A stretch of 64,000 bases of DNA, from IMG/VR virus record IMGVR_UViG_3300009110_000335. One strand, 5' to 3'. Below, one piece after another: positions 7,137-49,823 of the stretch. Numbering within the stretch: the first letter of the stretch is position 1; each line of letters starts with the position of its first letter. The position numbers and the translations under genes are program-made. The notes under the pieces are model-generated. The model ran no database searches, was not told the DNA's origin, and saw only the letters and a program-made list of their open reading frames with translations. Source of the DNA: a virus.

Positions 7137-7137
7137 T

Positions 7138-16848: not shown

Positions 16849-16862
16849 AATTTAATTTTATA
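16849..16862 (+). promoter_or_regulatory. Class-1 promoter AATTTAATTTTATA
   Basis: Exact motif ending 24 nt before the ATG at 16886. Confidence 0.75.
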
Positions 16863-21692: not shown

Positions 21693-24600
21693 ATTTCAAG
21701 CGGGCAGAAGTACCCAACCTCAAGTAAATACAGCCACAGCAAAGATGGGTACTGTTGCAATAGAACAGCCAAGACCAACTCCTGCTTCACTTAAAGATGC
21801 CGCAGCCCCGCAACTTGGCTATCTTTCTTCTAGTGGGTATGTTGACGTAAGCCGTGACGGTAAGAGGATAGATCCAGAGAGTGAAGAAGGTAAGGCAATA
21901 CAAGCAATATACTCAAGACAGTTTGAGGAAACAATAGATAATGCTGCCCAGCTTGAACGATTCCTTGCTGTGACAAGAGGTCAGGCATCCATTGAAGATA
22001 CCTTACTCAACCCAGGAACAACTAACAGATACGAAGGTTCAAACATAAAACCAAATAGAGAACAACTCATTCGTACATATTTTGAAGAGAGAGGTGTACC
22101 ATTAACTGAGCAATTCAGTAATGTGAATCTAAGACCTGTAAAATACACGGCTGCTCGTGAACGTGCAAGGCTTGCAACTAACACTGGTATAGAGATGGGC
22201 GATCTAAGGGATCTGCTTCCTGGCACAAGTGCATATCTGAAAAGTGGTGAGTCAATTCCTGCAGACCGAATAAGAACCGGTGAGATATATGCAAGACGTG
22301 ATAACTTCCTAAGACAAGCAGGAGAGATAAAAGATGTTGTAGATGGTGAAGTAGGAACAGTTGCAAGAGACCCGTCATATAACCAAGTGGTGTCTACAGG
22401 GCTTATACCTGGCACACCTGGTATGCTTTCAGGATTATCTGTCGCACAAGGTGCAGACAGGACATTACAAAACGCTGCATTGTTTATAGCTGGAGGTGTT
22501 GCCCCAGTTACAGGTCTTTTAGCAGGAATTGGTGGGGTCTTTAAACCAAAGGCAAAAGGCGGTGCAATACCAGAAAAAGTACCCGATCCTCTCTACAGAC
22601 CTTCGGCTACCGAAGAGGGACGTGAACAAGTTGAAGAAGAGATAAGTGATGATGTTGCGAGAGATTGGACAATGGACCCAATAATAGAGGGGGGTCCTGA
22701 TGATTACAGAGTGATTGATGGAAGTATACTTCAGAGAGCTGTTGAAAAAGATGGTGCTTTTGGATTCCTAGTTGGAACAGGAGAGGTATTCAAAAGACTT
22801 GGAAAGTCATTAGTAGTGCCTGAAGAACAACTCGGTCAATTAGGATACTATGCAGCCACACAAACACCTATTGAAGAATGGAGAATAAAGGAATCTGCAT
22901 TAGATCTTGCAATCAATCCAATATTAGAACCAATGGCACCATACCTTGCACCATATGCTGACATTGATGCTTCATGGGATGATGTAGGTGGAAGTTTGGC
23001 TAGATTTGGCGGTGCCTCTGCTACTACTGCATCTAATATTGGTATAGGAATGGCTACGCCTGAACTGAGAGACGCGTACTTTGCAGAAGCAGGGCGTGTT
23101 GGTGGAGAGTCATGGGAAAAGTTCCAAAAATACCCATTGTATTATACAGGAACCGCACTAGGTGAAATACCACTTGCATTAGTAGGGGCGGGACAGGTTG
23201 GGTTCTTAGCAAGGGCTGGTGTTAAAATCACGAAGGCTGCACTAGTAGCAGACGCTGGAATGAAAGGCTCAAGAGTTACCGCGAAAGCCAATGTGCTGGC
23301 TGGACAGTTAAAGAATGTTGACAGTACTATAGAATCATTATCAAAGAAACACAACTTCAATGAAAAGGATTTCAACAGTTTGATAAAAGATAGAAATAGT
23401 ATCCTAAAAGACATAATTGATTTTGAGCATGTGGATGTGAATAGAACAATGAAAGCAACTGAGGTTGACAATATGTTCAAGAATGCAGACGGTGCATACA
23501 AAGAAGGTGTATCAAGTAATACAATTGACAGAGTCAATCAACTCAAGGCAGTTGATAGAAAACTCAATGACCAATTCACAGTCCCAAACGAATTAAAGAA
23601 TGCAATAAAAACACGTGAAGATATACTTGACCGTACAATGAAGTTGGTCGATTCAACCGATCCTTCTTTACGAAATGACCCTATAGCTATACAGAATGCA
23701 GTGTTAAAAAAGAAGAAGTTAATCGAGGACACCGCCGAAGAAAAGGCTAACACATTATACCAAAAACTAGTAACTCAGCCTGGTGTGAATTATGGAGCAT
23801 GGAAGAAACGACAAGCTCTCAGACTAGGGAACCTCATAACTCTTGGTGGTAAATCTACTCTTGGTGGAAGGCTGGATCCAAAAATGTTTGCTACTCCTAG
23901 ATCACAATACAGGGCTGCTCTTTCACAGGAACGCAAACAAGGATTTGGACTTGCCAGATTTGAACCAAGAACATGGATTTCAGGACTAGCATTTGTCCCA
24001 AGATTAACACGTGCATTTGCAGAGGTAGGATCACCGTCAAGTCCAGAAGAACTCGCAGCATATCCAAACCCATTGAATCTATTCGGTAAATCACAGTTAG
24101 AAGCTGATGTGGGACGCATGGGTGCAGGTACAGTCCCTGTTGAATATACACCTATGATGAATGCATGGGGTGGTATGCTTCGTGGACTTGGTGTACAAAA
24201 CGTACAGATCAAAGCAAGATTGATTCAGGATAAAGTTCAGGCTATGATTAAATCGCCTAAAACAATTGATACAGAAACGACAAAGATTGAGTTCGACGTA
24301 ACTAATCAGATAGTATTCCAGCCTGGTAGAATAGGTCCTGCCTCAACCCAAAAACCAGACACAACGATTAGTATGACCATGCCAGCAGACCAACCTATAG
24401 GATTCCAGAAATCATTTGGTATAGGTGTAGCAGGAATAGATCAACCAATGCAGATCACATCAGATGTGACATTAGGTCAATACAGATCACCAGGCTTTAC
24501 ATTTACAAGCACAGAGGATCTACTTACTCAGTATCCATCATTTGAAGCAATATCTAATTTCTATAAACAAACCCCACCCTCAAGTCCATTTGGTGCACTA

Positions 24601-27600
24601 CCAAAAGGATTGAGTAAGACGGAACCTACCGATATCATAGGTGCACCATTTAGAGTAGAAGGTTCGTTTACTGCTGGAAGGAAAATGACAACAGACGAGG
24701 TAATTGATCTTGGAGAAGAGCTTCCAATCGTAGCTACCCCAACGTCCCAAGTCACACGTAATTATGAAAAGAATCTAAACAAAATACAAGAAAAGATTGC
24801 AAAACTAGACAGTGATGAAATAAAGGTGTGGGGAGACGTATCAAAAATAAACGTCCTTACGTCAGGAATTAGTTGGTCGTCGGTAAAGAATGACATTGGG
24901 TTAAACAAGTTCTTCGCAGATGTTACACCTAATGTTAAAACAAATCTCAACACAATTGAGAAAGGAAAGGTAACTGATTATCAAACAAGAATAACTCAAT
25001 TGAAGAATGTGATTGAAACGAATGAAAAGAATAACATGGACACAACAAGCTTGAGAAGAGAATTAAAGGACTTGTATATTGAAGTCGACAAAATACAATA
25101 CGACAACCCTTACCCAACATATGATAATTACATAGACTCGATAGGAAGACAGACTGAGTCACTCATGCCAGGTATGGGTGAAATAGGTGAACGCGCAATA
25201 AACGAGATAAAGGACTTTGCAGGAAAAGGTAAACTGAAAAAGGCGTTTGGTGAATTAAGAAACACTGAGGAATTAATAAGAAAAGAAAGAGGAGCCATTA
25301 AGAAAATTAATCCGGCAGATGAAAAGAAACTAAGACGATCACAAGATAAACTTCTATTACTAGAAAGAAAGGCTACTGCACAAAGAGAAAATCTAGCTAG
25401 AGAGATGAAGGATAATGCTGGATTCCTTGGGGCTGAGGTTCAATTTGCAGCCATATCAGATGATAAAATATTCACAAAAAACCCACTAACCGACCCAACG
25501 GTATTATTAACAAAACCACAGGCTCAAAAACTTCATGAGATTGCAACAAAAAGAATTGCATTAGAAGGGGAAAAAGAAAAGATTGTGATGGACTTTTCAC
25601 CACAAAAGGTTGCATTTACATTCACACGTGACGTTCCGTTTGACGCTATGTCTGCGTCACTAACAGACATTGTTGTCACGAAATCAGGAAAAGGACGTTA
25701 CATAATAGATGCTAAGGCAGGATCAGACGGTGTAATACCAACTCTCAAAGGAGAGTTCCTTGACTTCATGGAACAGGCAGGAGGAATGACACCTGGACAA
25801 AAGAAAAAGAATGCTAAAGAATTACAAAAAGCAGCCCTCGGCAATAAAGAAATTGCTGATACAGGAAACACTTTGTTTAGATTCATCACACCTAACAGAT
25901 ATGACAACACGGCAAAACATGACAAAGTCACTCATGGTGTCATTGATACAGATAATAGAATATTAGGTGATAGTAATTTACAAAAACAATATGGGCTTGA
26001 ACCAAGAGCTATTAAGGTTGGAGATAGATCACCAACCAAAGAAGAGGTTACGACAGGGGTATACACAAAGAAAACTAAAGTTCCGATATGGGCATATGCA
26101 ACAGATGGGAACGGGAACGTGATATTTGATGTTGTACAACCATATACAGCAGCAGACGAAGTTGATTATCTAAAGTTTATCACAGGAAAAGGATTTGATG
26201 ATAAGGCAAACCTCAGTGAGTTTGGTGAGCAAACTAAGACAATAACAAAGGATCGTGTGGCTAACATAACACCAAGCGGTGAGAAGGTAATTGAAAAGTT
26301 TGAGTATAATGTTTCTACGTTTGCAAATCAATTCAAAATGACACCACCAAAAAGTCAGGATGCATATGCACAGAATATTGAAGTTCTTGAGAAAGGTCTG
26401 GAAACAACAATGGGTAAGGTAGGTATTGTTGATGATAGATTAAAGACTGTACAAAAAGGCATATCGGATTATGAGAAAGCATATGCAATAGCCAAAGACA
26501 TCATGAAGAATGACACAATTGATATAGAATATGAACTGAACAGACTGGCTGATCCAACGGCAATGGCATCAGTAACGTCAAGAAACATTAAAGCAAAGGA
26601 ACAAAACATCTCTGACATAAAAGATCAGATACGAGAAGTTGAGGATCAAATTAATGCAAAGTATGTAGAGATTGGTGAGAGTCATGTAACAATGAGTACT
26701 GCGATAAAACCAGTTGCAACAAAGAAGTTCCTTTTGTTTAACAATGATTATCCAATCAGTGGTATGGGACAATGGGATTACATGGATAGTGATATCTTCA
26801 CACGTGTTGCACAGAACACACCTACAAATCCAATAGACAATCCTGAAAAGATATTCAACCAAAGACAATACTTTGAATTAATTATTGATGCCTTAGAATC
26901 ACCTGAGGCATCAACAAAGAGGCTGAATAAATTATGGAAAGATGTAGATGTTAAAGCAGACACCGACGTTGAGAAACTTAACCTTGTAAAAGAAGTGTCA
27001 ATGAAGTATTTGGACGATGTGAAAGGTGAAGATAAAATGAAAGAGATACGAAAGGAGATAAAGGAAATTGAAAGTGAAAAAGGTAGAACGTATACAGAGA
27101 AAATTAGAGCTGTAAAACAATACGTACTCGAAAGTGCAAAGGACGATAGAGATCAATTGAAGGCTAAACTTGATGAAGCATTCAGTTTTGCTGGAGCAAC
27201 ACCAGACCAAAAAATACAGATATTCAATGCAAGAGCAAAAACAATACTAGATCAAACGTTAGGAACAGTGAAAACAACAAAGAATGAAAAAGGTGAGATC
27301 GACATCGTTACAGATGACTTCATGGATGCATTTGTTAAAAACAATAACCTCATAGCAGACGCAGAGGAGTTAATGTCAACAAGAAAAATATTAAAACAAA
27401 ACCTAGTGAATGAACAACAGGACTTAACAGAAATAAAGTTTGACCATCGGACATTACAGAAACTGGCAACACAGATAAAACGTGATGGTGTGGGACGACA
27501 CCCACTAGATCCTATAATCGCCCCTATTGAACTAGATACACTTCCTAAACTATTTGGTAAATATGTCAATATTAGTTCAGACCGTGTAGAGTGGATACGG

Positions 27601-30600
27601 GGAACAGGCAAAGGAAAGATAGCAGTGACTGAAGAAATACAAGAACTATTCCCAGGGGGCAACGTCCCAGATGAAATAACCGCACCTGTACAATTTGGAA
27701 TGGGTGGAGGCGGAGATGACATAATGGAAAACCTATCAAGAGGATCAATGCCATACACTGGAAAGGGCAGACCACCTGTTGGTAAGAAACTAGTACTTGC
27801 TGGAACTGTAATGGTTGATATACAACTTGGCACAGTGACAGTTCAACGAAAGCTCCCAATCTATGCACTGCCAGGAACTAACCAGTATCTAGCAAAAGGG
27901 AAAGATCTCAGATTCACAATGCCAGAAACACAAAACCTCACAACAATGAAACCAGATCAGGTGCTTGTTGTTGAAACAGGACTTAAGGAAGGATTGAAAG
28001 CTAAAAAAACTAAAAAGGATCCAGAGACAGGCGAAAAGAAATACACACCACAACAGGCAGCACTAGAATTATTCAACGCAAGTCAAGGCAGGTCTGAGGG
28101 ATTCACAGGAAGTAGAACAGCAGGACAGAATGTGTATCTATTACCTACTGCTACTGGTGTCAGACAAGGTCCCGAAATTGATATTGACATGTATGTTAGA
28201 AACCTCACAGATCAGATGGATCAGAACCCAAACAGAGAGTTCTTGTTAACAGACGGTGGAGTAATAAACGCTAGTAACTTTATTAATCACTTTGGTGATT
28301 TTGTATTTGAAAAGAATGTCATAATTCCAAGATCATTCTTTGAGAAACTTAATCCACAACAGCAAGCAAAATACGCAGCGACACACACGAAAGATGTACT
28401 GTATACAGGATTAAAGACAGTTCGTTCTGGTGGTCAGAGAGGTGTAGATCAAGTGGGTGTTGAGACCGCAAAGGATGCAGGATTGAAGACAGGCGGTGTC
28501 ATGCCTGCAGGATGGAGAGTAGAAGGTGGAAACGCAGAAGCATGGGGAAGGAAATATGGATTCACACAGTCTTCAGACTCGTCATTTACAACACGTACAG
28601 ACCTAAACGTACAACAAAGTGATGCTACAGTATACTATGGTGCAGTTGACGCTAACGGAAACCCATCATCACCTGGTGGTATTAGAACAGCAGATGCAGC
28701 AAGTAGATATGCAAAACCATTCATAGTGAACCCAGATCCTGAAACACTTGCAGAATTTCTTGCACGTAATAATGTGCAGGAGCTTAATGTAGCTGGAACA
28801 CGTGCTTCAAAACAAAGCACTAGTTTGATAGGTGGTAAAACACCAAATGAATATGCAAAGGAATCACTTGGTGGTGCAATCAAACTAACTAAACCTGCTG
28901 TAATGGGTGAGGCTGACGTACCTGACAGATTCACTGCATACCTACCAATGGAAGTAGCAAGACAGGTTCAGGGTGACATTGTTCGTGTAAACAGTGATGT
29001 GTTCAAAGATGATATAATCAGAAGTCAAGCTGTAGTGCCAGCACTTGCAATGAAAGCTAGTTCACAGTACATGCAAAGTGTCAGACAAATAAGTAATAAT
29101 CTGAAAAAACAGATGGAGGATCTTGGAACCAAGAAAGACAAAATCAATAAAGAGATTGAGGTTAATGACTTTAATGATCAACAGGTAAGGGCAATCGTAC
29201 ACCTTGTAAACCAGTATCAAACTGGGTCAAAAACCATCAAGGCAATGCCAGGTGTGAAGGAAAGATACAAAGGAATGTATGATGCACTGGAGAACTTCAA
29301 AAACAAAGAGTTCTATAAACAGATAGAAAACATAGCAAAAGGCAAAGACTACAATCTAAAAAAATTCTTCACACCAAAGAGTGAGGTTCCAATATCTGAA
29401 ATACGTACGAACATAGATTTCCTAAAAGACTTGCTTCTAAAAGCAAAGGAAACGAAAGGACTACAAGGAAAGATAGTAAAGAAACACACAGTCAACCCTA
29501 CTGAAAATTCAGGTGTCATAGTTGCAAGAGAGATACTTCCTAACCTTCGTGATAAAGCAAAGATCTACGAGGTTGGATTGGGAGGAGGTGTCTTAGAGTT
29601 AGGGGCAAAGTGGAGAAGAAACGAATGGTTTGAAAAGAATGCAGAGTCATCATATGCAGTAGTTTCAAAGGAAACTGTTGATCAAACTATCGCATCGCTT
29701 GAGGTGGCAAAGAACAAAGCAGGATCTACTGGCGCAATGGATGAACTTCAGAAAAAAATAGACGAGTTAACAGGAATGAGTAAACAGCTTGGCGGGGAAC
29801 AAAAATACGGTGATAAATCAATCATTGCCGATAACTACAATGCATTGACATCTGACGTGAGTATAGTTGTACTGCCACAAAAGAATGTAAGGACTGATGG
29901 ATCATCTGTTCATTTTGACTATAATACATTCATAAAGAAATTAGAAACATATGAGGCACAGGACTCAATGTTAGAGTCATTAAAAAAAGACTTGGCATTA
30001 CTTGAAAAAGAAAATAAAACTCTAGCACCAACAAGTTCAAAATACCTGAACAACCAAGGGAAGATTATTTTATTACAGGATAAAATAGAATCAGAGACAG
30101 AGATTCTAGTAAGGTATGCAGGTCAGGTGAGAAATAGTGATCCTACAGGTGTACATGGAACAGGTCAATATAATAAAAATCTTCATAGAGAATGGAATGA
30201 AGAATTGGGTAAATATGTTGACACAAAATACAAAGGTTGGGTGACAAACAAAGACGGAAACAACCAAACTAGACATACAATAGAATACATGTTAAAAGAC
30301 AAAGAAAGACGTGATAAACTGTTTGTGTTAACACCTGATACAGATCATGCAGAATTAGAGGCATTCCTAAAAATGAATAACCCAAAACGAATCAATATTG
30401 TGGGTGTGGCAGGACCAATACAAAGGACAAAAGGTGGAGAACCAATAGGACCAGTAAACACAAGACAAGCAGAACAACACTTCCAAACAAACCAACTCAT
30501 TAACAAACATATTTTTGGTGAAGCGATAAAAGTTGGTACAGACAGTAAAGGCAAACCAATATATGAACAGGTTGATAGTGGTACAGAAGTTATTGCACAT

Positions 30601-33600
30601 CTAAAAAATGTTGAAAAATTGGAGGATGTTAAATTAACACTAGGTGAAAAACAGGTAGGCGAGAAAGGAACACTAGAATTTATTTCAAAACTACGTTCTG
30701 CGATAACTGCAAATGAGAGAGTGTTACAAAAAGCAGAGAATCAAATAACAAGTGATCTCAACATAATCAGTGGGTCAACCCATACCAACATAAGTAAAGC
30801 AAATAGAAAGAAAGTAGAAACATACAGCAAACAGCCTGATGTCAAAGATGATAATATGTTTGAAACAGTGGAAAAATTATATGGTGTGAATGTTGACAGA
30901 CGAACAAATAATGTCACGACTGACATACTTGCAGAGATAAAAAAGAAAATCAACAGTGAAACACCATCTGTCAGTACATTCAGTAGTACGCAGTTAAGAA
31001 ATTATGATAGACTAAAACGTCAGTACAATCAGGCAGTTCTCGCAATTGCAATGAATAGAAACATCATAGATAATGAAACCGTCAGTACAATGAAAATTGC
31101 AACAGATAATGAGAAGACATTCTCAACAATGTTAAGAGAGATTGAATCAATCAATCCAGATACATCTGATATCAATGTAGAGTTCGGCAAATACGTAGAT
31201 ATTGACAACCCTGATGAGATAAAGAGACTTGCAACAAACGCTGGTATTGACCCAAAGAACTTGAATCAAAAAATCAATGCATGGTTAAGAGAATATACCG
31301 GATCTAACATCGGTGGTTTATTCAAAGAAAAAACAAAGAAGGTGATTGAAAAGGAAAGTATGGAAGCCGAAGCCGTATTTGCAAAAGGTGAAGGCGCACA
31401 AGTCGCAAAACTAGTTGACCAACAACTTGATTATGGTTTGACTGAAAACCAGCTTGACTTTGTACGCAATATGGTTGGAAAGACTGACTTTGAAGCAGAC
31501 GCATACATGAATCCTAATGTGATAACAAAGAACGTTGAAGAAATCACTGATGTGGAATGGAATAACTTACAATTCCTAGCATCAAAGAATCTTGTGAAAT
31601 TCAATAACAAAGGAACCACCGCAGAGTATCAAGATAGTTATCGTATGAGAGCATACCTCAATCCAACAAAACCAACAGGAAAACAAACACAACCTATGTA
31701 TGTCGATCCTCTTAACCCACAAGCTACCCTGTCTGCAAAGGAGGTAGAAGAGAGGTACGGCGTAAAACAAACAAGGGATATTGCAGAGTTCTTAACACGT
31801 ACAAAGATAGTGGAAGAACAGTTTGATGGAAGTTATGTTGTAAACCAAGCCAAGGTCAAGGGTATTGGTAAATTCCTAGGGGATACAGAGACGATAAGAG
31901 AGAAATACAAAACTTCTATATCAAAACAACGACCAACCATGGACAAGGACGACACTGACCTTGAGGTGATTCAAGCAATAATAAGTGGCGACAAACAACG
32001 TGGTATTGCAAAGCTTGACAAAGATATAACAGCAATTGACAGAGAGATAGCCGAACAGATGAGATTGTTAGATGCAGATAAGGCGGATATTAATGCAGGT
32101 CAAGTGGCTCGTGCAGAAGGCAAAGTAAACGAATTGTTTGAACTACATGCAGAAGCTCTTGCACGTGGTGATAAAGGAGTTGCAGATAAAATCAAGAAAG
32201 AGGTTAGTAGTACATTTGGTGACGCATTTGGTGGGACAAACATATGGAATCAATGGCAATCAAAACAACTAACAAGTTCTGTCAAGGCAGTAATAGCATT
32301 AGACTATAGAGAAAAGATAGTTCAGCCAAGTAGGAGTGTACTTGAGTACATAATACAGGGTGGCAAGATGAGTGATCTAAAAGACACCAACGTATTAAAG
32401 GGATTGAAGGATCCAAAAGGAAACCCGTTGATTACAGGATTAGACGAAATTATAAGGACAGGTACAGACAAGCGTTTGTTAAAGAAATGGGAAAAGGCAC
32501 ATGAAGATAAAAAACTATCAGAGGTTGAGTGGGCAAAACAAGAACATGAAAAGATGAGTGTACTTGATGATACATTTGGTGATTATGCAAACGCATCAAT
32601 TACTAATGGAACACTGACCTTGGAAACAAGAATACTCCCTAGATCAAACGTTGAAAGAAAACTAAAAAATCTAAAAATAGAGATTGAAAAAATCAAAGAG
32701 AATGATATAAAAAATCACACAAGAATAAACAAAACTGTATCAGACACACTGGAGAAAAAACAGAATGAATACAACAGACTCAAAACTGGAAGAGAAGAGT
32801 GGGAGAGGATTATCGATGGTCAATATAATGAACGTGCGGTATATGATGTAGAATACACAAAACCTGATCCTGAATTTGACGACGGTTCGCCATATGTTAG
32901 AGATGCAGAAATGACATTTGATACAGACGACGTCACACGTAATGAATATTTCATAAGTCAGGTGTATGGTAAAAGAATCAAGAATATTGATATGGGTGGA
33001 ACCGATAGAGACACCTTAAGAAGATTCTTCGGTGACAGTGTAAGATCATTCAAAGGTAAAGTCTACGAAGAATTGACACCATGGGATGAATCCTTCATGA
33101 GAGATATACTCACACAGGTAAAGAAAGAGAAAACCAAAAAGGTGAAGGATCTTTCAAATGACATAGGAAGATACACAACACCACCACAATCACAGAAAAC
33201 TAAACAAGCCAAACTGAGCATTATAAACAGTATGAGTGATGTTGATAGATTGAAAGATAGTTTTGAAGTTATGCAGAAAAAATCTGGAACTATTCCAGTA
33301 TCAGATATCAATGTAGGAAGTAAAATAGAACAAGTATTCGTCTTGAATCCATCGAAGAGAGATAGTACTAGCGCAATAGTAATTGAAGAGTTTGCCAACA
33401 AACAGAGATTCTGGAGGAGTGAAGATGCTGACGTAGTAAAGAAAGGACAACCGAAGAAGGGTAAAAAAGATCCTAAATTAAAACAAAGAGTTGGTAAAAA
33501 GGACGATGTTGACCCATTCGAAGAAGCTGAAAATAAATTAATTGATGATAGAAGAGTTAAGGTGTACGGTAGTACATTGAGACCAGAGGGTACTGAACGA

Positions 33601-36600
33601 GCATTGTCGAGTGAGGCTAAAGAGATAATGGGTGACAAATTAAAGAACGTGCGATTAGAAATGACCGCAAAAGAGGAACAAACACGGGGTCTAACAAAAA
33701 TGTTGAAGGACATGGAAGATCAAGTGAAACGTGATAGAAAACAGGCATTAAAAGAAACTGGTTCTGGAACAAGAGGTAGGTTTGCAGATATAATAAAAGA
33801 TGCCGATGTGGAAGGTCACGACAAATCAAACACCAGAAGTGCAATGATAGTCATAACAAAGAAAGACGGAACAGATGCAAAATACACAAAAGATGGCAGA
33901 GTGATACTTGGTGATGGTAAAACTGGTGACTCAAAAAGTCCTTTACTACGTTTGATATCAAGATACTCAAAAGATGCAAAGGACAAGGAAGTCTTACTTG
34001 ATAAAGATTCAGACGGAATGCCAATCCAACTAACTAACAAATTCGGTGATCCTGTGATGGTAAGACCAGAAAAAACCGACACCAAACCAAGAGTTATTGT
34101 GATAAGTGATCCAAGTGACCCAGCACAAATAATGGAGGTGAAGAGATTGCTACATGAACAGAATGTGAGATACCTTGGTGTCGTTGGTGATAATCTTGAT
34201 GATTATTCTATTAGAAAACAAGTTAGTAAAAACATGAGGAAGACAGAATTGGATCAGGGTGTGTTCCTACCAGACCCAGTATATAGTGTAAAAGGAATGA
34301 TGGGTCAACTATTCGGCACTAATATAGATAGTTCTAAACTTGGAATGAGTTCAGTTCGTGACGGATTAATCGACATGGTGGAAACCAACAAGAATAAGGA
34401 AATACTTCCACAGAAGCTAAAACAGGTGGAAGATAAGATACGTGCTGCAGAATTAAAGAAAGAAAGCCGTGACAAAGAGTGGATTCCACGTACTGAGAAT
34501 TTATTATTTGAAGGATTTGAAAATTCATTCAAAGACAAGTATAGTGGAATTAATAGAAACAAACTACTAGGTACTGAGAGAGTACTTGAACTGATAAAGA
34601 AACGTCTTATCAAAGACGAAGGTAAACAGAGAGAGAAGGTAAACAAAGAAGTAACAAAACAGCAAATTGACTTTGTACGCCAGAATGATCCTACCACCAT
34701 ATCTAACTTTGTGAGATCTGAACAAGAAGTATTGATTGCAGGTAATAAGGCAAATGACATACTTAGTGCTGCAATGAAAGGAGACACCAGTCAAAACGAT
34801 GTGAATAAATTCTTATGGTCACCTACAGGTGACCCAGGAACACCAGGAACATCGATTGTAAAAGTCAACACGTATTTGAAATTTGTACCAACACTTGACA
34901 CACCAAAACCAGAAGTAGGTATAATGTCAAGGATACAGAGAAGGGTGTTAGGTACACAAGAAAAACAGAAAGCAAAAAGAGACGAGACGTTCTATAGTGC
35001 ACTTGACGATATGACAGCACAGGATCCAAACACAGGGGAATTTACATCATTAGGAACGCTTAGGAGTAGTACTAGTGAAACGTGGGATACTAGCGAAGGA
35101 TTGAAAGCTTCACTGACAAAAGAATATCTTATTTCACTACACAATACAAACAACCCAAAAGACCAAGTAAAGAGCTGGAACCAATTAATCATGAAGACAC
35201 GTGGTTCTGATTACAACAGGATATTGGGCTGGGTAGTAGATGGTTATACGCTAAAGTCAGAAAAACTACCAAGTAGTATAGTAGGAACCACCAAGACAAG
35301 ACCAACCTCGTTGTCTGGTGATGAAGTGTTTTTCAAACTGTTGAATAAAGAAGCAATAGGTCCTGAATCACAAACAAAATCAATTGAGAAGGCAAGTAAT
35401 GTATTCCAACCGGCTGTGAGTGATTTGAGTATGACTGATTGGTGGAAAGGACCAACCAAGGGTGATAAGGTGGTTTACAATATTTTGAAACGCGGTGGTC
35501 ATAGAATAAAGTCACGACTTCCATTATATGCAAATAAAAAGAATGTTGGAGGATGGGTTGGTCAATTAAACAGACCTCTAATACCAGAAAAGGTACAAAG
35601 AAGGTTGGATCTATTCTCATTCATTGAAAGGGGTAAACCAAAACAAACAGTAGAGCCTGATCCTCAAAGACCTATGGAACAAGCAAAGCTTACAGGACAG
35701 TACCCTGTAGAGAGAGAAAGTTTGTTTGAGGGACAAGTGCAAGCCGTGGGATCTATTGTGTCTACACCTAAAGGACAAAAACTACAAGCACCGATGATAC
35801 GTGAAGAGTTATTCACAAAGGAATATGCAGACGCACCTGAATTGGCAAAGGACGTTGAAGCTATATTCAAAGCTGAAAGAAAACAAAATGTACCAGACTG
35901 GTTTGTTACCACAAGTAATACAGATGAAGCAACATTAAATTCATGGATTAGAGAACGGGACACAACAAAGAGACTGTATGACCTAACCCGTCAAGATATA
36001 GATGAGAAGGTAAAAGAGAAAGAAAAGATAACACGTGCTGCATCCGGTCTTATTGGCAAGTCAGATGATATTCTATCAAAAGAAGATTTACAAAAACTAA
36101 ACCAAGCTGAGACTCAGCTTGGTAAAATAGCAACAGAGATCAACAACCTCAAATCAACTAACAAAACACACTTGAGCCAAATAGATGAACTTACTAAGAA
36201 GATTAAACTTAGTGTCCAACCAATACCTGGTGTACCAGGTGCCACAGTGACAGATGAGTTTGGATTTGCTTCAAGAGTGAGAAATGTGTTTGGCTCTATA
36301 ACTTCACCATCAACACCAAGACTTCCAACATGGGCTGGTAAAAAATCAGTGTCAGAACCATTTGAGGTGGTTGTTGATTATGATGTCCCAGCACAACAAA
36401 TACCAGGTCGACAGGAAGTAACAAAAGAAACAAGGCAAGTTATAAGAAAGTATCTAGGCACTGGATCTGATTTCAATATAGAGATTGAACAGGTCGGAAC
36501 AACATTTGCACCAAAAGGAAAGAAAGTAGCATTTGGTAGTGGTGAGTTTCCATTCCAAATAACAGACGCGGGTGGGGTTAAATCAATTGTTGATGCTGTA

Positions 36601-37512
36601 AAGGGTGCAACCGGAACAACAGAAAGCTTCACTAAAAGAGAGACGTTCACACCAAAGACAGGTGGTGGTGCATATGGTTATGACACAAGTGGTGGATTCA
36701 TAGGTGATACAGCACAACAGACAACACAGAAACAAAAGACAAAAACCACAGCAGAGACAAAACAGGATCAAACAATGACAGAAGCGATGGAAAAATCCAC
36801 AAAGGCAAAAGCCCCTGATACAAAAGACATTCAACGTTCAATTGGAATGGGCGTTTACGGAATGGAGTATTCACAATATGTCAACCAATTCCTAAGTGGA
36901 CCACCAACAGCAGAGGCACAAGAACAAAAACCTGTGCAAAGGATCGACACCACATTACCAACAATACGTATGAATTTAGATAGAGCAATAACCAAGAATG
37001 TCAAACAACCAGCAGTAAGAATATCAAACATGATGCAAGGTGTAGTTGCAGGTGTTAATTTCAATACAGCCAAAAAACTAAGCCAAGCAAGTGCCATGAT
37101 AACTGCAACAACACAGTCATATTTCCCAACACAAGCAATGGCAAGTCAAACAGATTTGGAGAATTTGAGATACACTGAACAGCTACAAACTAGACTTAAG
37201 ATTAAACCAACATTCAAACAAAGTCCTGATATGAGACTTGCTCTTGAACCAAGAGGACTACAATTACCAAAACCAAAACCTGCAGTGATACCAAGAACAA
37301 TACCAATACAACCAGCATTAATGTTCCCATTACCACCGTTTGATGGTGGGGCACCTAAAAGACAAAGACCAAAACCAAAGAAGAGTAAAAAGAAAAAGAT
37401 TGGTTGGCAAGTACCTGATGTGTGGTTTGGCTACTACAGTCCTGATGAGTATACAGTGTTTGGTGGTCAAGAACCAAAAAAATTAAAAAAACAGAATAAG
37501 AGGTTGGACTAG
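21667..37512 (+). CDS. Giant 5281-aa protein (putative virion ejection/internal protein) with macro-like and SLOG (Mo-cofactor-carrier-like) domains
   Basis: Uninterrupted 15.8-kb ORF (ATG alternative at 21676). SLOG motifs VRSGGQRGVD..G..TA..AGLKTGG..P.GW, RTDLNVQQSDAT and LARNNVQELNVAGTRASK at about 28410-28820. Extensive coiled coil; Pro/Lys-rich C-terminus. Confidence 0.85.
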   Translation: MREMAKRTRFQAGRSTQPQVNTATAKMGTVAIEQPRPTPASLKDAAAPQLGYLSSSGYVDVSRDGKRIDPESEEGKAIQAIYSRQFEETIDNAAQLERFLAVTRGQASIEDTLLNPGTTNRYEGSNIKPNREQLIRTYFEERGVPLTEQFSNVNLRPVKYTAARERARLATNTGIEMGDLRDLLPGTSAYLKSGESIPADRIRTGEIYARRDNFLRQAGEIKDVVDGEVGTVARDPSYNQVVSTGLIPGTPGMLSGLSVAQGADRTLQNAALFIAGGVAPVTGLLAGIGGVFKPKAKGGAIPEKVPDPLYRPSATEEGREQVEEEISDDVARDWTMDPIIEGGPDDYRVIDGSILQRAVEKDGAFGFLVGTGEVFKRLGKSLVVPEEQLGQLGYYAATQTPIEEWRIKESALDLAINPILEPMAPYLAPYADIDASWDDVGGSLARFGGASATTASNIGIGMATPELRDAYFAEAGRVGGESWEKFQKYPLYYTGTALGEIPLALVGAGQVGFLARAGVKITKAALVADAGMKGSRVTAKANVLAGQLKNVDSTIESLSKKHNFNEKDFNSLIKDRNSILKDIIDFEHVDVNRTMKATEVDNMFKNADGAYKEGVSSNTIDRVNQLKAVDRKLNDQFTVPNELKNAIKTREDILDRTMKLVDSTDPSLRNDPIAIQNAVLKKKKLIEDTAEEKANTLYQKLVTQPGVNYGAWKKRQALRLGNLITLGGKSTLGGRLDPKMFATPRSQYRAALSQERKQGFGLARFEPRTWISGLAFVPRLTRAFAEVGSPSSPEELAAYPNPLNLFGKSQLEADVGRMGAGTVPVEYTPMMNAWGGMLRGLGVQNVQIKARLIQDKVQAMIKSPKTIDTETTKIEFDVTNQIVFQPGRIGPASTQKPDTTISMTMPADQPIGFQKSFGIGVAGIDQPMQITSDVTLGQYRSPGFTFTSTEDLLTQYPSFEAISNFYKQTPPSSPFGALPKGLSKTEPTDIIGAPFRVEGSFTAGRKMTTDEVIDLGEELPIVATPTSQVTRNYEKNLNKIQEKIAKLDSDEIKVWGDVSKINVLTSGISWSSVKNDIGLNKFFADVTPNVKTNLNTIEKGKVTDYQTRITQLKNVIETNEKNNMDTTSLRRELKDLYIEVDKIQYDNPYPTYDNYIDSIGRQTESLMPGMGEIGERAINEIKDFAGKGKLKKAFGELRNTEELIRKERGAIKKINPADEKKLRRSQDKLLLLERKATAQRENLAREMKDNAGFLGAEVQFAAISDDKIFTKNPLTDPTVLLTKPQAQKLHEIATKRIALEGEKEKIVMDFSPQKVAFTFTRDVPFDAMSASLTDIVVTKSGKGRYIIDAKAGSDGVIPTLKGEFLDFMEQAGGMTPGQKKKNAKELQKAALGNKEIADTGNTLFRFITPNRYDNTAKHDKVTHGVIDTDNRILGDSNLQKQYGLEPRAIKVGDRSPTKEEVTTGVYTKKTKVPIWAYATDGNGNVIFDVVQPYTAADEVDYLKFITGKGFDDKANLSEFGEQTKTITKDRVANITPSGEKVIEKFEYNVSTFANQFKMTPPKSQDAYAQNIEVLEKGLETTMGKVGIVDDRLKTVQKGISDYEKAYAIAKDIMKNDTIDIEYELNRLADPTAMASVTSRNIKAKEQNISDIKDQIREVEDQINAKYVEIGESHVTMSTAIKPVATKKFLLFNNDYPISGMGQWDYMDSDIFTRVAQNTPTNPIDNPEKIFNQRQYFELIIDALESPEASTKRLNKLWKDVDVKADTDVEKLNLVKEVSMKYLDDVKGEDKMKEIRKEIKEIESEKGRTYTEKIRAVKQYVLESAKDDRDQLKAKLDEAFSFAGATPDQKIQIFNARAKTILDQTLGTVKTTKNEKGEIDIVTDDFMDAFVKNNNLIADAEELMSTRKILKQNLVNEQQDLTEIKFDHRTLQKLATQIKRDGVGRHPLDPIIAPIELDTLPKLFGKYVNISSDRVEWIRGTGKGKIAVTEEIQELFPGGNVPDEITAPVQFGMGGGGDDIMENLSRGSMPYTGKGRPPVGKKLVLAGTVMVDIQLGTVTVQRKLPIYALPGTNQYLAKGKDLRFTMPETQNLTTMKPDQVLVVETGLKEGLKAKKTKKDPETGEKKYTPQQAALELFNASQGRSEGFTGSRTAGQNVYLLPTATGVRQGPEIDIDMYVRNLTDQMDQNPNREFLLTDGGVINASNFINHFGDFVFEKNVIIPRSFFEKLNPQQQAKYAATHTKDVLYTGLKTVRSGGQRGVDQVGVETAKDAGLKTGGVMPAGWRVEGGNAEAWGRKYGFTQSSDSSFTTRTDLNVQQSDATVYYGAVDANGNPSSPGGIRTADAASRYAKPFIVNPDPETLAEFLARNNVQELNVAGTRASKQSTSLIGGKTPNEYAKESLGGAIKLTKPAVMGEADVPDRFTAYLPMEVARQVQGDIVRVNSDVFKDDIIRSQAVVPALAMKASSQYMQSVRQISNNLKKQMEDLGTKKDKINKEIEVNDFNDQQVRAIVHLVNQYQTGSKTIKAMPGVKERYKGMYDALENFKNKEFYKQIENIAKGKDYNLKKFFTPKSEVPISEIRTNIDFLKDLLLKAKETKGLQGKIVKKHTVNPTENSGVIVAREILPNLRDKAKIYEVGLGGGVLELGAKWRRNEWFEKNAESSYAVVSKETVDQTIASLEVAKNKAGSTGAMDELQKKIDELTGMSKQLGGEQKYGDKSIIADNYNALTSDVSIVVLPQKNVRTDGSSVHFDYNTFIKKLETYEAQDSMLESLKKDLALLEKENKTLAPTSSKYLNNQGKIILLQDKIESETEILVRYAGQVRNSDPTGVHGTGQYNKNLHREWNEELGKYVDTKYKGWVTNKDGNNQTRHTIEYMLKDKERRDKLFVLTPDTDHAELEAFLKMNNPKRINIVGVAGPIQRTKGGEPIGPVNTRQAEQHFQTNQLINKHIFGEAIKVGTDSKGKPIYEQVDSGTEVIAHLKNVEKLEDVKLTLGEKQVGEKGTLEFISKLRSAITANERVLQKAENQITSDLNIISGSTHTNISKANRKKVETYSKQPDVKDDNMFETVEKLYGVNVDRRTNNVTTDILAEIKKKINSETPSVSTFSSTQLRNYDRLKRQYNQAVLAIAMNRNIIDNETVSTMKIATDNEKTFSTMLREIESINPDTSDINVEFGKYVDIDNPDEIKRLATNAGIDPKNLNQKINAWLREYTGSNIGGLFKEKTKKVIEKESMEAEAVFAKGEGAQVAKLVDQQLDYGLTENQLDFVRNMVGKTDFEADAYMNPNVITKNVEEITDVEWNNLQFLASKNLVKFNNKGTTAEYQDSYRMRAYLNPTKPTGKQTQPMYVDPLNPQATLSAKEVEERYGVKQTRDIAEFLTRTKIVEEQFDGSYVVNQAKVKGIGKFLGDTETIREKYKTSISKQRPTMDKDDTDLEVIQAIISGDKQRGIAKLDKDITAIDREIAEQMRLLDADKADINAGQVARAEGKVNELFELHAEALARGDKGVADKIKKEVSSTFGDAFGGTNIWNQWQSKQLTSSVKAVIALDYREKIVQPSRSVLEYIIQGGKMSDLKDTNVLKGLKDPKGNPLITGLDEIIRTGTDKRLLKKWEKAHEDKKLSEVEWAKQEHEKMSVLDDTFGDYANASITNGTLTLETRILPRSNVERKLKNLKIEIEKIKENDIKNHTRINKTVSDTLEKKQNEYNRLKTGREEWERIIDGQYNERAVYDVEYTKPDPEFDDGSPYVRDAEMTFDTDDVTRNEYFISQVYGKRIKNIDMGGTDRDTLRRFFGDSVRSFKGKVYEELTPWDESFMRDILTQVKKEKTKKVKDLSNDIGRYTTPPQSQKTKQAKLSIINSMSDVDRLKDSFEVMQKKSGTIPVSDINVGSKIEQVFVLNPSKRDSTSAIVIEEFANKQRFWRSEDADVVKKGQPKKGKKDPKLKQRVGKKDDVDPFEEAENKLIDDRRVKVYGSTLRPEGTERALSSEAKEIMGDKLKNVRLEMTAKEEQTRGLTKMLKDMEDQVKRDRKQALKETGSGTRGRFADIIKDADVEGHDKSNTRSAMIVITKKDGTDAKYTKDGRVILGDGKTGDSKSPLLRLISRYSKDAKDKEVLLDKDSDGMPIQLTNKFGDPVMVRPEKTDTKPRVIVISDPSDPAQIMEVKRLLHEQNVRYLGVVGDNLDDYSIRKQVSKNMRKTELDQGVFLPDPVYSVKGMMGQLFGTNIDSSKLGMSSVRDGLIDMVETNKNKEILPQKLKQVEDKIRAAELKKESRDKEWIPRTENLLFEGFENSFKDKYSGINRNKLLGTERVLELIKKRLIKDEGKQREKVNKEVTKQQIDFVRQNDPTTISNFVRSEQEVLIAGNKANDILSAAMKGDTSQNDVNKFLWSPTGDPGTPGTSIVKVNTYLKFVPTLDTPKPEVGIMSRIQRRVLGTQEKQKAKRDETFYSALDDMTAQDPNTGEFTSLGTLRSSTSETWDTSEGLKASLTKEYLISLHNTNNPKDQVKSWNQLIMKTRGSDYNRILGWVVDGYTLKSEKLPSSIVGTTKTRPTSLSGDEVFFKLLNKEAIGPESQTKSIEKASNVFQPAVSDLSMTDWWKGPTKGDKVVYNILKRGGHRIKSRLPLYANKKNVGGWVGQLNRPLIPEKVQRRLDLFSFIERGKPKQTVEPDPQRPMEQAKLTGQYPVERESLFEGQVQAVGSIVSTPKGQKLQAPMIREELFTKEYADAPELAKDVEAIFKAERKQNVPDWFVTTSNTDEATLNSWIRERDTTKRLYDLTRQDIDEKVKEKEKITRAASGLIGKSDDILSKEDLQKLNQAETQLGKIATEINNLKSTNKTHLSQIDELTKKIKLSVQPIPGVPGATVTDEFGFASRVRNVFGSITSPSTPRLPTWAGKKSVSEPFEVVVDYDVPAQQIPGRQEVTKETRQVIRKYLGTGSDFNIEIEQVGTTFAPKGKKVAFGSGEFPFQITDAGGVKSIVDAVKGATGTTESFTKRETFTPKTGGGAYGYDTSGGFIGDTAQQTTQKQKTKTTAETKQDQTMTEAMEKSTKAKAPDTKDIQRSIGMGVYGMEYSQYVNQFLSGPPTAEAQEQKPVQRIDTTLPTIRMNLDRAITKNVKQPAVRISNMMQGVVAGVNFNTAKKLSQASAMITATTQSYFPTQAMASQTDLENLRYTEQLQTRLKIKPTFKQSPDMRLALEPRGLQLPKPKPAVIPRTIPIQPALMFPLPPFDGGAPKRQRPKPKKSKKKKIGWQVPDVWFGYYSPDEYTVFGGQEPKKLKKQNKRLD

Positions 37513-47139: not shown

Positions 47140-47381
47140 TGTTACAATGTGATATATGTAAAAAACATAATTCGATATTCATGTGTCCTGAAGAATATAA
47201 AACAGGATTAAAAGAACATCAAAAATTCCATGACCCAAAAATGCAAGATGAATTAAAGAAAGAACGCAATGAAGTGAAACAAGGTGGATACAAATCAGTA
47301 CTGGCTGATGTAGATATAGAAAAAGTATATGGATTAGGAACAATAAATTGGATAAAAGTACCAGAGGAGGAACCGAAATGA
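47139..47381 (+). CDS. C2H2-like Zn-finger protein
   Basis: MLQCDIC...LKEHQKFH; TAATG overlap. Confidence 0.6.
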   Translation: MLQCDICKKHNSIFMCPEEYKTGLKEHQKFHDPKMQDELKKERNEVKQGGYKSVLADVDIEKVYGLGTINWIKVPEEEPK

Positions 47382-47983
47382 GTGCAATTAGTTTATTTGA
47401 ACGTATGAGGGAAAATCGACCGACATTCGTTTACTTTAAGGAATTACAAAATATTGACTATCCAAAATTATTTACCTCAATGAAATCTGCCAAACGAGGT
47501 CAAGACGAAATTGACATATTTGCAAATATATGTATGAAATTAAAACAAGAGGCAATGACAACACCTGCGATAGCAGAAATGTTTCCACTGATATCACTTG
47601 CAGTAGAAAAAGATGAGAAAGTATGGTTCTTTGAACTGATGGGTGTAGAAGGGCAACAAAGTCCTATGGAATGGGTTGAACCTCTCACTAGAGTGTTTAA
47701 TCCGAATATGTTTGTGGTACTTGCAGAATCATGGTATATTACTGAAAAGGCACCTAAAGGAAAAAGTTCCTTGAACGATTATGCACCTGGTGATATATCC
47801 AAAAGTAAAGATAGACATGAATGTCTTATTGTAGATGGAAGAACACGCAACGGAGATAAATCACATGTGATATTAGAAGTCAAACGTGGTAAGAATAATA
47901 ATATAAGATTCAAAGAAATTTATACCGATAAAGTCAAAGAGGGAAAATTTAATGCAAGATATGATATGGATCCCGAAAAATGA
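47378..47983 (+). CDS. Hypothetical protein
   Basis: ATG after GAGGAGGAACCGAA (SD); 201 aa. Confidence 0.7.
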   Translation: MSAISLFERMRENRPTFVYFKELQNIDYPKLFTSMKSAKRGQDEIDIFANICMKLKQEAMTTPAIAEMFPLISLAVEKDEKVWFFELMGVEGQQSPMEWVEPLTRVFNPNMFVVLAESWYITEKAPKGKSSLNDYAPGDISKSKDRHECLIVDGRTRNGDKSHVILEVKRGKNNNIRFKEIYTDKVKEGKFNARYDMDPEK

Positions 47984-48016: not shown

Positions 48017-48988
48017 TTGGGTAAACCTTCAGTGAAAGTCGGCGATAAGGATCCGCAAGATATTCCATTAGAACTTCCTATGAGTATTATGAGAGTTCTT
48101 GTTGAGATGTATTACGACTTCCAAAAGACAAGAATAGAAGCGGGAAACCGTGCCTTAATGAATGCCGAAAGAAATAGCATTACTGAGGAAGACCTTGAGA
48201 AATATGGTGTCAAAGACATCTTTGATGCGGCAAAGAAATTTGAAGGCGCAATACAGAAACGTATCGAAGTTGACCTTCCTAACAAAGCAATTTTTAAGAA
48301 TTATCTAGATAGTATCCAAGGAATTGGACCAATACTTACTGCAGGCTGTATGGCATATGTAGAAGATATTGAAAGATTCGATAAGGTTAGTGCACTATGG
48401 CAATATTCTGGATATGGTCAAAACACATTCTGTCCTGACTGTTCCACAGATAAGACGAAAGCATGGACATATGTTGACGTTGAATATGAGGGAGCCGATG
48501 GTAAAACAAAGAAAGTGAAACGATTACGTCCATCTAAAACATGTAACAAATGTGGTCATGACACAGAGAATGCAAGACAGCAAAACTCAGCAGGATTTCA
48601 AAGTAACTGGAATCCAAAGATCAAGGTGTTATTCTGGAAGGCAGCAACTAGTTTCATGAAACAACAATCTGCAAAAAGCGGATATAGAAAATTGTATGAA
48701 CAATACAAACGTGAACTAAGGACAAAATTCCCATCAAAACTTAAAGATAAAAACGGTAAAACAAAATATAACGATGGTCATATCAACAACATGGCTCTGA
48801 GAAAGGTCTCAAAGGTATTCATGCAACATGTATGGATAGTCTGGAGACAGATCGATGGTCACACAATATCTAAACCATATGGTGCGACTGGAGCCAATCA
48901 CACCTACTTGGAGCCATTTGTTGATAAACCAAACAAAGAATTTGATAAAATTTTGAAGGAGATTCAAAAGAGTCTAAAGGGGGTGTAA
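48017..48988 (+). CDS. tasA: Nop-domain (IS110/Nop5/Prp31 superfamily) RNA-guided DNA-binding protein, TasA-like, no RuvC, with Zn-ribbon insertion
   Basis: Coiled-coil LVEMYYDFQKTRIEAGNR and HhH YLDSIQGIGPILTAG..AYVEDIERFDKVSALWQYSGY. Insertion CPDC...CNKC, then NWNPKIK..FWK.A.SFMK...YRKLYEQYK...GHINNMALRKVSKVFMQHVWIVWR. No N-terminal DEDD domain. Adjacent 36-nt dual-spacer array. Confidence 0.85.
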   Translation: MGKPSVKVGDKDPQDIPLELPMSIMRVLVEMYYDFQKTRIEAGNRALMNAERNSITEEDLEKYGVKDIFDAAKKFEGAIQKRIEVDLPNKAIFKNYLDSIQGIGPILTAGCMAYVEDIERFDKVSALWQYSGYGQNTFCPDCSTDKTKAWTYVDVEYEGADGKTKKVKRLRPSKTCNKCGHDTENARQQNSAGFQSNWNPKIKVLFWKAATSFMKQQSAKSGYRKLYEQYKRELRTKFPSKLKDKNGKTKYNDGHINNMALRKVSKVFMQHVWIVWRQIDGHTISKPYGATGANHTYLEPFVDKPNKEFDKILKEIQKSLKGV

Positions 48989-49143
48989 TGATGGCAATAA
49001 ATTATGATAGACAAGAAGAGTTTCTCGAAGAACTGATTGATAGTCTACATTCTATGAAAGCAAGTGCAAGAAGCGAAGAACTATTTGAAGACATAGATGA
49101 TATTATCAGCGAAGTCAAAGAGAAAATGAACGAACTGAAATAA
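48988..49143 (+). CDS. 51-aa acidic helical microprotein between TasA and array
   Basis: MMAINYDRQEEFLEELIDSLHSMKASARSEELFEDIDDIISEVKEKMNELK; TAATG overlap with the tasA-like gene. Confidence 0.7.
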   Translation: MMAINYDRQEEFLEELIDSLHSMKASARSEELFEDIDDIISEVKEKMNELK

Positions 49144-49155
49144 CCGAAGGTCGCG

Positions 49156-49400
49156 TGAAACCCAAAATGGGTGTGTGAATCAGCAATCATATGAACCCCA
49201 TAAAGCACTTATGAATCAAAGTATAGCTGAACCCCATGGTATGAATATGAATCAAAGTAGTTTTAGAATCCCAGAGAATCCATATGAATCATCGGCATAG
49301 TTAAACCCAGAAAGAAATTATGAATCCGAACCATGTTGAATCCCAAGATATGAGTATGAATCAAAACGGTCCTGAAAACCAAGAGGTATAGTATGAGTCA
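49156..49400 (+). ncRNA. TIGR dual-spacer guide-RNA array A (7 units, 36-nt period)
   Basis: Edge repeats TGAA(A/C/T)CCCA-like at 49156, 49192, 49228, 49264, 49301, 49337 and 49373. Loop repeats TATGAATCA-like at 49174, 49210, 49246, 49283, 49319, 49355 and 49392. Unique 9-nt spacers lie between them. Confidence 0.9.
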
Positions 49401-49497
49401 AATAATAAAATTGAAATGTAGCAGATGTGCAACATACGCAATGTGTGAAAACAATTGTGAATGTTCATGTCATAAAATAGAATGGAGTAAAAAATAA
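49393..49497 (+). CDS. 34-aa Cys-rich microprotein
   Basis: MSQIIKLKCSRCATYAMCENNCECSCHKIEWSKK. It starts inside the last loop repeat, and its stop overlaps the next ATG. Confidence 0.55.
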   Translation: MSQIIKLKCSRCATYAMCENNCECSCHKIEWSKK

Positions 49498-49823
49498 TGG
49501 CATTAGAAATACAAGTCAGGGTAGAAGAACATGGAACCAACCGTCATAAGGATATCATAATACCTGTCTCTAACAAAGAGTTTGAAATGGTGTCTAGACT
49601 TGGAGATATAGAAAATGGCAAACCTGCCTATGAACTAGTAATATCTCTAATAGGTGATTTACAGAAAGAAGTTGAGGTAGAACAGCAACTTGACATTAAC
49701 CACCCTGAAAAATACTTTTTCAAAATAAATCTTGTGAGATGTGATAGATGTGAAGAACGATGTAATTGCGATAATAATGACACATGGAATGAACGCCCTT
49801 CAAAAGGTAACGGGGAATGGTAA
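49497..49823 (+). CDS. Hypothetical protein with C-terminal Cys cluster
   Basis: CDRCEERCNC motif. Confidence 0.65.
   Translation: MALEIQVRVEEHGTNRHKDIIIPVSNKEFEMVSRLGDIENGKPAYELVISLIGDLQKEVEVEQQLDINHPEKYFFKINLVRCDRCEERCNCDNNDTWNERPSKGNGEW

Follow-up and report, generated by a model that had tools for sequence, protein, structure and literature searches.

Does the DNA of a virus-like element encode an RNA-guided system of its own and, if so, of which kind? The question is raised by a 64,000-nucleotide (nt) stretch of viral DNA (IMG/VR record IMGVR_UViG_3300009110_000335, analysed at its full length and called the window below), in which a gene for a Nop-domain protein (48017–48988) is followed by short repeats of two alternating kinds. 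An initial annotation, made from the letters alone, had proposed a nuclease-less TasA with a dual-spacer TIGR array. We conclude that the locus is very probably a dual-repeat TIGR-Tas system of the TasA type, carried on a large marine virus-like element whose host is probably a member of Nitrososphaerota. This reading is based on homology, fold, conserved residues, a predicted dimer and the period-36 arrays with differing spacers that accompany related proteins, and on these grounds the annotation's central proposal is upheld. Dual-repeat TIGR-Tas arrays have a 36-nt period, 9-nt spacers and two alternating repeats (PMC12045711). Every defining feature of such systems that can be tested on sequences was found here, and homology, fold, conserved residues, array anatomy, repeat conservation with spacer turnover, and whole-guide exchange are all directly observed.

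The gene, tasA (48017–48988, + strand), encodes a 323-amino-acid (aa) nuclease-less Tas protein composed of a coiled coil and a Nop domain, characterised with phmmer, AlphaFold 2 (AF2), Foldseek and VIA-align. Translation may start at TTG 48017 or at GTG 48032, as in the ESM Atlas record. A phmmer search of Protein Data Bank (PDB) sequences matched, with E 5.6e-30, the effector TaTasR from a Thermoproteota archaeon, whose structure (PDB 9MTY; Faure et al. 2025, PMC12045711) is the founding one for TIGR-Tas, and SpTasH of Salicola phage CGphi29 (PDB 9W03, 21KL and others; PMC13421893) with E 1e-9. The AF2 model, computed from an alignment of 23 relatives, has a mean predicted local distance difference test (pLDDT) score of 88. 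Foldseek places TasR and TasH chains first among its structural neighbours (probability 1.00), followed by IS621 and ISCro4. In VIA-align comparisons the model superimposes on 9MTY_B with Z 20.3, a root-mean-square deviation of 1.9 Å over 199 residues and 37% identity, with Z 18.0 on TasH and with Z 12.6 on ISCro4. The Nop/Tas fold, for which the annotation had proposed a check, is thus predicted by AF2, Foldseek and VIA-align. Pfam yields a short Transposase_20 match alone (E 5.8e-6), and PHROG 4285, a family labelled 'transposase', matches with E 4.7e-36.

In the alignment to TasR, the first TasR position covered is residue 109, leaving the RuvC domain without a counterpart. The coiled coil starts at about aa 17, after only some 16 disordered residues, so that there is no room for RuvC or HNH. 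No nuclease family of Pfam matches the protein, and its insertion with four Cys residues contains no HNH motif. The annotation had allowed for an ordinary transposon with a frameshifted DEDD domain upstream. The open reading frame (ORF) at that place, 47348–47983, has no match in Pfam, PHROGs or the PDB, and hence nothing suggests that a DEDD or RuvC domain has been split off. By sequence comparison, the protein is of the TasA type and nuclease-free.

A coiled-coil dimerisation hairpin (48065–48283, + strand; about aa 17–89) is modelled with helices at residues 22–52 and 65–89. A symmetric homodimer is predicted through aa 17–82, with an ipSAE interface score of 0.64 compared to 0.00 for the best control, agreement between runs in at least 84% of contacts and a partner pLDDT of at least 83. 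In a calibration of this score, 20 of 30 proteins with structures solved as pairs of one chain reached the mark, as did one of 23 solved as single chains. The predicted dimer shows likeness to Tas proteins and is not independent proof, as the model may remember solved Tas dimers.

Within the Nop domain lies a zinc-ribbon insertion (48419–48577, + strand; aa 135–187), modelled as beta hairpins with pLDDT >90. Its residues C139, C142, C176 and C179 are invariant in 23 relatives. At the insertion site TaTasR has about six residues and SpTasH about eight; the SpTasH loop holds K180 and H182, near the termini of its guide RNA, the tigRNA (PMC13421893). By analogy, the zinc ribbon would sit near the guide termini or flanking DNA. 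We found no mention of zinc in the TIGR-Tas literature that was text-searched for it. Two relatives, P0018 and P0022, have the same zinc-ribbon core within proteins of 476–489 aa that carry long Lys-rich N-terminal and acidic C-terminal extensions.

Toward the C-terminus, Y288 and H295 (48878–48901, + strand) align to Y289 and H296 of SpTasH, the catalytic residues of autonomous, metal-independent pre-tigRNA processing in that protein (PMC13421893), and form a putative processing pair. Y288 is conserved in at least 90% of clade relatives and H295 is invariant among them. According to a 2026 preprint, the Tyr/His pair is retained in dual-repeat systems and lost in stem-loop ones; its presence in the window's TasA therefore fits the array type found. 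In addition, W207 and K203 occupy the alignment positions of the aromatic/basic pair found where DNA is unwound (TaTasR Y238).

Array A (49138–49400, + strand) begins 150 nt past the tasA stop codon. It consists of a degenerate 5' edge repeat followed by seven successions of spacer A, loop repeat TGAAMCCCA, spacer B and edge repeat TATGAATCA, so that 9-mers resembling TGAAMCCCA and 9-mers resembling TATGAATCA, seven of each, alternate with starts 36, 36, 37, 36, 36 and 37 nt apart. The spacers, every one of them unique, are 9 nt long except for two of 10 nt. The seven guides (spacer A/spacer B) are A1, aaggtcgcg/aaatgggtg; A2, gcaatcata/taaagcact; A3, aagtatagc/tggtatgaa; A4, aagtagttt/gagaatcca; A5, tcggcatag/gaaagaaat; A6, gaaccatgt/agatatgag; and A7, aaacggtcc/agaggtatag. 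Off-consensus repeats in the region are TAGAATCCCA, TTAAACCCA, TATGAATCC and TATGAGTCA. The part from 49156 to 49400 reads as the annotation had transcribed it. The start of the array had been set about 18 nt too late, since the degenerate first edge repeat (AAATAACCG) lies at 49138–49146 and the first spacer at 49147–49155. Array A is crossed by no + strand ORF of at least 50 aa.

We also found a second array, array B (9177–9329, + strand), which lies 40 kb from tasA and contains four guide units with edge and loop repeats as in array A. It opens with AATGAACCA, an edge repeat changed at its 5' end, and closes with TGTGAACTT, one changed at its 3' end. Its spacers bear no relation to those of array A. 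The array stands directly 3' of a gene for a phage-type DNA methyltransferase (8583–9149; phrog_757, E 8.7e-48). A TTAATATA element at 9146–9153, which shares bases with the stop codon of the methyltransferase gene, has its end 24 nt upstream of the array's first edge repeat, a spacing that resembles that of the strong AAATTTAATTTTATA late-promoter motif found before six genes at 5902–16849. It would suit an archaeal promoter for array B, which is speculation.

A + strand search of the 64-kb window for both motifs, with at most one mismatch allowed, gives clusters only at 49156–49400 and 9177–9329. The maximum per 260 nt is seven and six copies, compared to no more than two or three in 30 shuffled sequences. 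Tandem Repeats Finder reported neither array, because half of each unit is variable, and Rfam gave sub-threshold chance matches only. In the transcribed form, the loop UGAAMCCCA fits exactly a box D-like UG start, an A-rich middle and a box C-like CCA end. The edge repeat, UAUGAAUCA, carries UG at positions 3–4 and ends in UCA, or in CCA in some copies, a mild deviation from the CCA rule.

Which of the two repeats bounds the functional unit matters for reading the guides. The annotation had placed the boundary at TGAAMCCCA, a register half a period off from ours: most likely TATGAATCA is the edge, or processing, repeat and bounds the unit, and TGAAMCCCA is the loop repeat. Three independent lines point to this assignment, namely guide sharing, array ends and a YGAR core. 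First, between the window and locus L003, a relative whose TasA is 94% identical, three spacer pairs flanking TGAAMCCCA are identical, as opposed to none flanking TATGAATCA, and the guide modules common to both stand in different order. The inherited unit would therefore be spacer-TGAAMCCCA-spacer, with exchange at TATGAATCA. Second, degenerate TATGAATCA copies stand at both ends of array A, of array B and of the array of locus L001, the first and last repeats of which are CATTAATCA and TGTGAATTA; by the published TIGR rule, arrays are bounded by truncated edge repeats (PMC12045711). Third, in a comparison of about 80 loci, covariation between CGAG and UGAA marks the YGAR core of the TATGAATCA-type repeat, and the other repeat is A-rich between UG and CCA. 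The Science paper on TIGR-Tas describes an edge repeat with an extra covarying pair and an A-rich loop repeat.

Related systems are common in metagenomic data. A collection of 5.8 billion proteins contains 22 relatives of TasA at 39–94% identity, all with the four Cys residues. In IMG/VR, 79 loci encode TasA relatives, and a generic period-36 scan places arrays next to almost all of them. L003 has about 19 units with both repeats as in the window; three of its guides are identical to the window's and the rest are different. L001 and L002, with 56% identical proteins, have seven units each. A sister clade at 45–48% identity uses TACGAGTCA and TGAAACCCA instead. Repeats are therefore kept within clades as spacers turn over, which is the hallmark of TIGR arrays; invariance of the spacers across related viruses, which the annotation had named as a sign against its proposal, was not seen. 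As judged from the sequences, whole guides are shared between related elements in a cassette-like manner. INPHARED phage genomes gave no DNA match and only distant TasA relatives, at 24–26% identity. One further locus, L084 (PBHE01000044.1), combines a 41%-identical TasA with about 30–40 TGCGAGTCA/TGAAACCCA units on a contig binned to an Acidimicrobiaceae metagenome-assembled genome (MAG). It is probably a mis-binned viral contig.

The comparison with L003 bears on whether the window's locus still works. A decaying, non-functional TIGR locus, whose short arrays and drifting repeats would belong to a TasA that no longer processes or binds, might be suspected from the seven units of array A as compared to about 19 in the near-identical L003, from two units of 37 nt, from a mini-ORF between tasA and array A, and from the repeats TAGAATCCCA, TTAAACCCA, TATGAATCC and TATGAGTCA, which deviate from consensus. 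However, these variant copies are conserved along with their guides in L003, which argues for inherited guide modules and not for recent decay. Moreover, the tasA ORF is intact and keeps all family-invariant residues, including the four Cys, Y288, H295 and W207; tasA is found in metatranscriptome contigs; and the same DNA occurs in marine metagenomes of several studies. We therefore consider decay improbable, and take the locus as an apparently intact TasA-type system.

From homology, from which each step is drawn, we infer how array transcription, processing, loading, binding, repression and target recognition would proceed. Both arrays would be transcribed, array A probably by read-through from tasA and array B perhaps from its own TATA-like element. 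A TasA homodimer would bind the precursor RNA through the UG...CCA/UCA motifs of loop UGAAMCCCA and edge UAUGAAUCA, and would cut inside each edge repeat with the Tyr288/His295 pair. The products would be 36-nt tigRNAs in the order half-edge, spacer A, loop, spacer B and half-edge. Probably one TasA is loaded from both arrays, and would thus carry 11 guides. Each ribonucleoprotein (RNP) would bind an 18-base-pair DNA site in which spacer A is joined to the reverse complement of spacer B; each spacer would pair with one strand, and there would be no protospacer-adjacent motif. Because no nuclease domain is present, the expected outcome is binding that acts as a roadblock or represses transcription, without cleavage. 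TasA RNPs have been described as RNA-guided transcriptional repressors in vivo (bioRxiv 10.64898/2026.09.09.750476). Our best guess for the targets is other marine viruses or mobile elements.

The geometry of the predicted target follows from the published cut pattern of TasR, at the fifth spacer base with 8-nt 3' overhangs, from which one target strand corresponds to spacer A plus the reverse complement of spacer B. Several results weigh against the system as read here, and the target searches provide two of them. No window site matches any of the 11 guides with two or fewer mismatches, in both geometries and both registers; three-mismatch sites outside the arrays number two, compared to 1.3 expected from shuffles. 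The A4 target, whose guide is conserved in three arrays, was matched with at most one mismatch twice in 301 genomes from the family to which a Nitrosopumilaceae MAG belongs, compared to four matches of a reversed control. The edge repeat presents a third difficulty, as it ends in UCA, not in canonical CCA, with only 2 nt between UG and UCA, and processing geometry may therefore differ from that of TaTasR. The zinc-ribbon insertion counts in the same direction as regards its effect on RNA or DNA binding. As for expression, tasA or its close relatives are partly covered by contigs from marine metatranscriptome libraries of four studies, but these contigs stop before 49010, none extends over the arrays, and such libraries can contain DNA. 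Finally, no capsid, portal or terminase match was obtained among the window ORFs tested with Pfam and PHROGs, which comprised most + strand ORFs of at least 150 aa.

In other viruses, exact 18-mers in IMG/VR were found for A3 (one), A6 (three contigs of one lineage) and A1 (one), with none for A4, and the control patterns (one reversed, two of wrong geometry) gave 0, 0 and 0. That three of four guides searched have exact matches in other marine viruses is only suggestive, at a one-sided probability of about 0.11, which is not significant. The lineage matched by A6 includes G435, a complete 102-kb tailed virus with a portal gene, which is not related to the window element by tblastn. The DNA of G435 and that of the window share a marine study, with no sample-level co-occurrence in four runs that contain window DNA. 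No further match beyond chance was found on G435 or its two relatives for 213 guides from 15 related arrays. The targets named in the annotation, competing viruses or host promoters, did not emerge from these searches; matches in the window and in Nitrosopumilaceae are at chance level. One of the two three-mismatch window sites, 47911–47928, matches the guide A5 target in 15 of 18 positions, at chance level, and overlaps a TTTATA about 95 nt upstream of tasA, where autoregulation would be sought. Both the window (21667–37512) and G435 (61032–77579, L098) carry giant ORFs of >5000 aa, each flanked by several ORFs of 700–1150 aa, and tblastn detects no similarity between the two at E 1e-4.

The failure of the searches to identify a DNA target, the Nop fold, the box C/D-like UG...CCA motifs and the use of box C/D small RNAs by archaeal hosts would also suit a system resembling box C/D small RNPs, in which a Nop protein and guides serve 2'-O-methylation or RNA binding and do not act on DNA. 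This explanation is less probable still than decay. TasA is nearest in sequence and fold to the DNA-targeting TasR and TasH, not to Nop5, and lacks the N-terminal fibrillarin-binding domain. Fibrillarin and L7Ae matches are absent from the ORFs scanned with Pfam and PHROGs, and the repeats lack the RUGAUGA/CUGA consensus. In addition, TasR is inactive on RNA substrates in published work, and TasA conserves the residues stacking at the junction where DNA is unwound. DNA binding by a TasA-type system remains the preferred reading.

Among characterised systems, TaTasR shares with the window's locus a coiled coil and Nop domain (about 30–37% identity, Z 20.3), a dual-repeat array of 36-nt period with 9-nt spacers, a loop repeat with UG start, A-rich middle and CCA end, an edge repeat with a covarying extra pair, and the aromatic/basic junction residues. 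In contrast, the window's protein has no N-terminal RuvC, lacking anything that corresponds to TasR residues 1 to about 108, so that cleavage is not expected; it has a 53-aa zinc-ribbon insertion where TasR has about six residues; and the edge repeat, of just 9 nt, has UCA at its end. SpTasH, like the window's TasA, is virus-encoded, has a Nop domain with the C-terminal Tyr/His pair (Y289/H296, corresponding to Y288/H295) and belongs to a dual-repeat array. However, its identity is only about 19–23%, its spacers are 8 nt and not 9 nt long, it has an HNH domain that the window's protein lacks, and it is without the zinc-ribbon insertion.

The characterised TasA proteins are FpTasA, with dual repeats, and PlTasA and MbTasA, with stem-loop guides (PMC12045711; bioRxiv 10.64898/2026.09.09.750476, 10.64898/2026.08.11.744272). 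By their published description, these share with the window's protein a solo coiled coil plus Nop domain and the lack of a nuclease, and the activity expected by analogy is RNA-guided DNA binding with transcriptional repression. PlTasA and MbTasA have no Tyr/His loop, whereas the window's TasA keeps the pair and has dual repeats. Unlike in the TasParB subtype, no parB-like partner gene is present. IS110/IS621 recombinases also combine an RNA-binding Tnp/Nop-like domain with a coiled coil (Z 12.6, Transposase_20); they differ in having a DEDD domain and a bridge RNA, that is, one two-loop RNA as opposed to many short guides. The least credible alternative of all, an IS110-family insertion sequence or remnant that retains the C-terminal Tnp/RNA-binding half of a recombinase and a degenerate bridge-RNA region as its repeats, would explain the sole Pfam match, the PHROG label 'transposase' and the structural kinship with IS621 and ISCro4, but not the absence of a DEDD/RuvC domain from the protein and of a DEDD_Tnp_IS110 match there or in the upstream neighbour, the far closer relation to TasR and TasH, a 36-nt array of 7 + 4 units that is no bridge RNA, the different spacers of relatives' arrays or the zinc ribbon standing in place of the loop in question.

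TIGR-Tas systems have already been published, archaeal viruses included, and TasA is their commonest form. The locus is a member of this known family, the concept of which it leaves unchanged. A coupling of TIGR-Tas with Nitrososphaerota viruses was not found in the literature searched. What distinguishes the locus is the zinc ribbon of its clade, a second array far from tasA, and whole guides that related elements share in the manner of cassettes. TIGR-Tas was described only in 2025 and most loci are on anonymous metagenomic contigs; here a compact, apparently intact TasA is accompanied by 11 natural guides on a widespread marine archaeal element. The sharing of whole guides by close relatives opens guide turnover and conserved targets to comparative study. 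The edge/loop assignment, the remote array B and the conserved zinc ribbon, at a loop that contacts the guide termini in TasH, provide handles on guide maturation and in-trans loading.

A more specific scenario is possible, though we regard it as doubtful. In this scenario, a zinc-ribbon TasA clade of marine Nitrososphaerota viruses would run a two-array programme in which one protein is loaded in trans both from the array next to its gene and from a remote array that has a promoter to itself and belongs to another expression block. Whole guides would be swapped between viruses as cassettes, by recombination at edge repeats, and would silence genes of co-infecting marine viruses. The exact 18/18 matches that three of four guides, but none of three control patterns, gave in unrelated IMG/VR viruses would be real protospacers.

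All large ORFs of the window are on the + strand. The window encodes an archaeal transcription factor B (TFIIB/TFB), a Mom-family protein, the phage-type DNA methyltransferase, an AAA_5 ATPase, fn3-rich proteins and a 5281-aa ORF product. Genes identical to the window's are found on contigs of up to about 112 kb, and its DNA is present in marine, seawater and estuary metagenomes of several studies. Of the annotation's 'thaumarchaeal virus', the host half has weak hints in its favour and the viral half lacks a recognised capsid or terminase gene. The contig of a 48%-identical TasA with an array was assigned by binning to the Nitrosopumilaceae MAG, and the window's TFB has its best identity, 49%, to TFBs in the phylum of that MAG. 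The nearest Atlas cluster of the TFB is mostly Nitrososphaerota, which is indicative only. Binning is unreliable, as shown by the TasA relative in the Acidimicrobiaceae-labelled MAG. From these sequence relations a thaumarchaeal host is plausible but unproven.

Two mini-ORFs flank array A. One, at 48988–49143 (+ strand) between tasA and the array, would encode an acidic helical protein of 51 aa with no significant Pfam match. It is missing from L003, where the array directly follows the tasA stop codon, and its membership in the system is doubtful. The other, at 49394–49501, encodes a Cys-rich 35-aa product (MSQIIKLKCSRCATYAMCENNCECSCHKIEWSKK), and its ATG lies within TATGAGTCA, the final copy of the edge repeat. 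The gene after the array in L001 and L003 likewise starts within a few bases of the final repeat, and the arrays are therefore tightly packed in a co-directional gene string.

Elsewhere in the window, 15527–16555 encodes a late-promoter-driven 342-aa protein with a very basic N-terminus. Just three homologs of it are present among the 5.8 billion proteins, and Pfam, PHROGs and the Atlas contain no match. Unlike the HK97 capsid protein in character, it may be a nucleoprotein.

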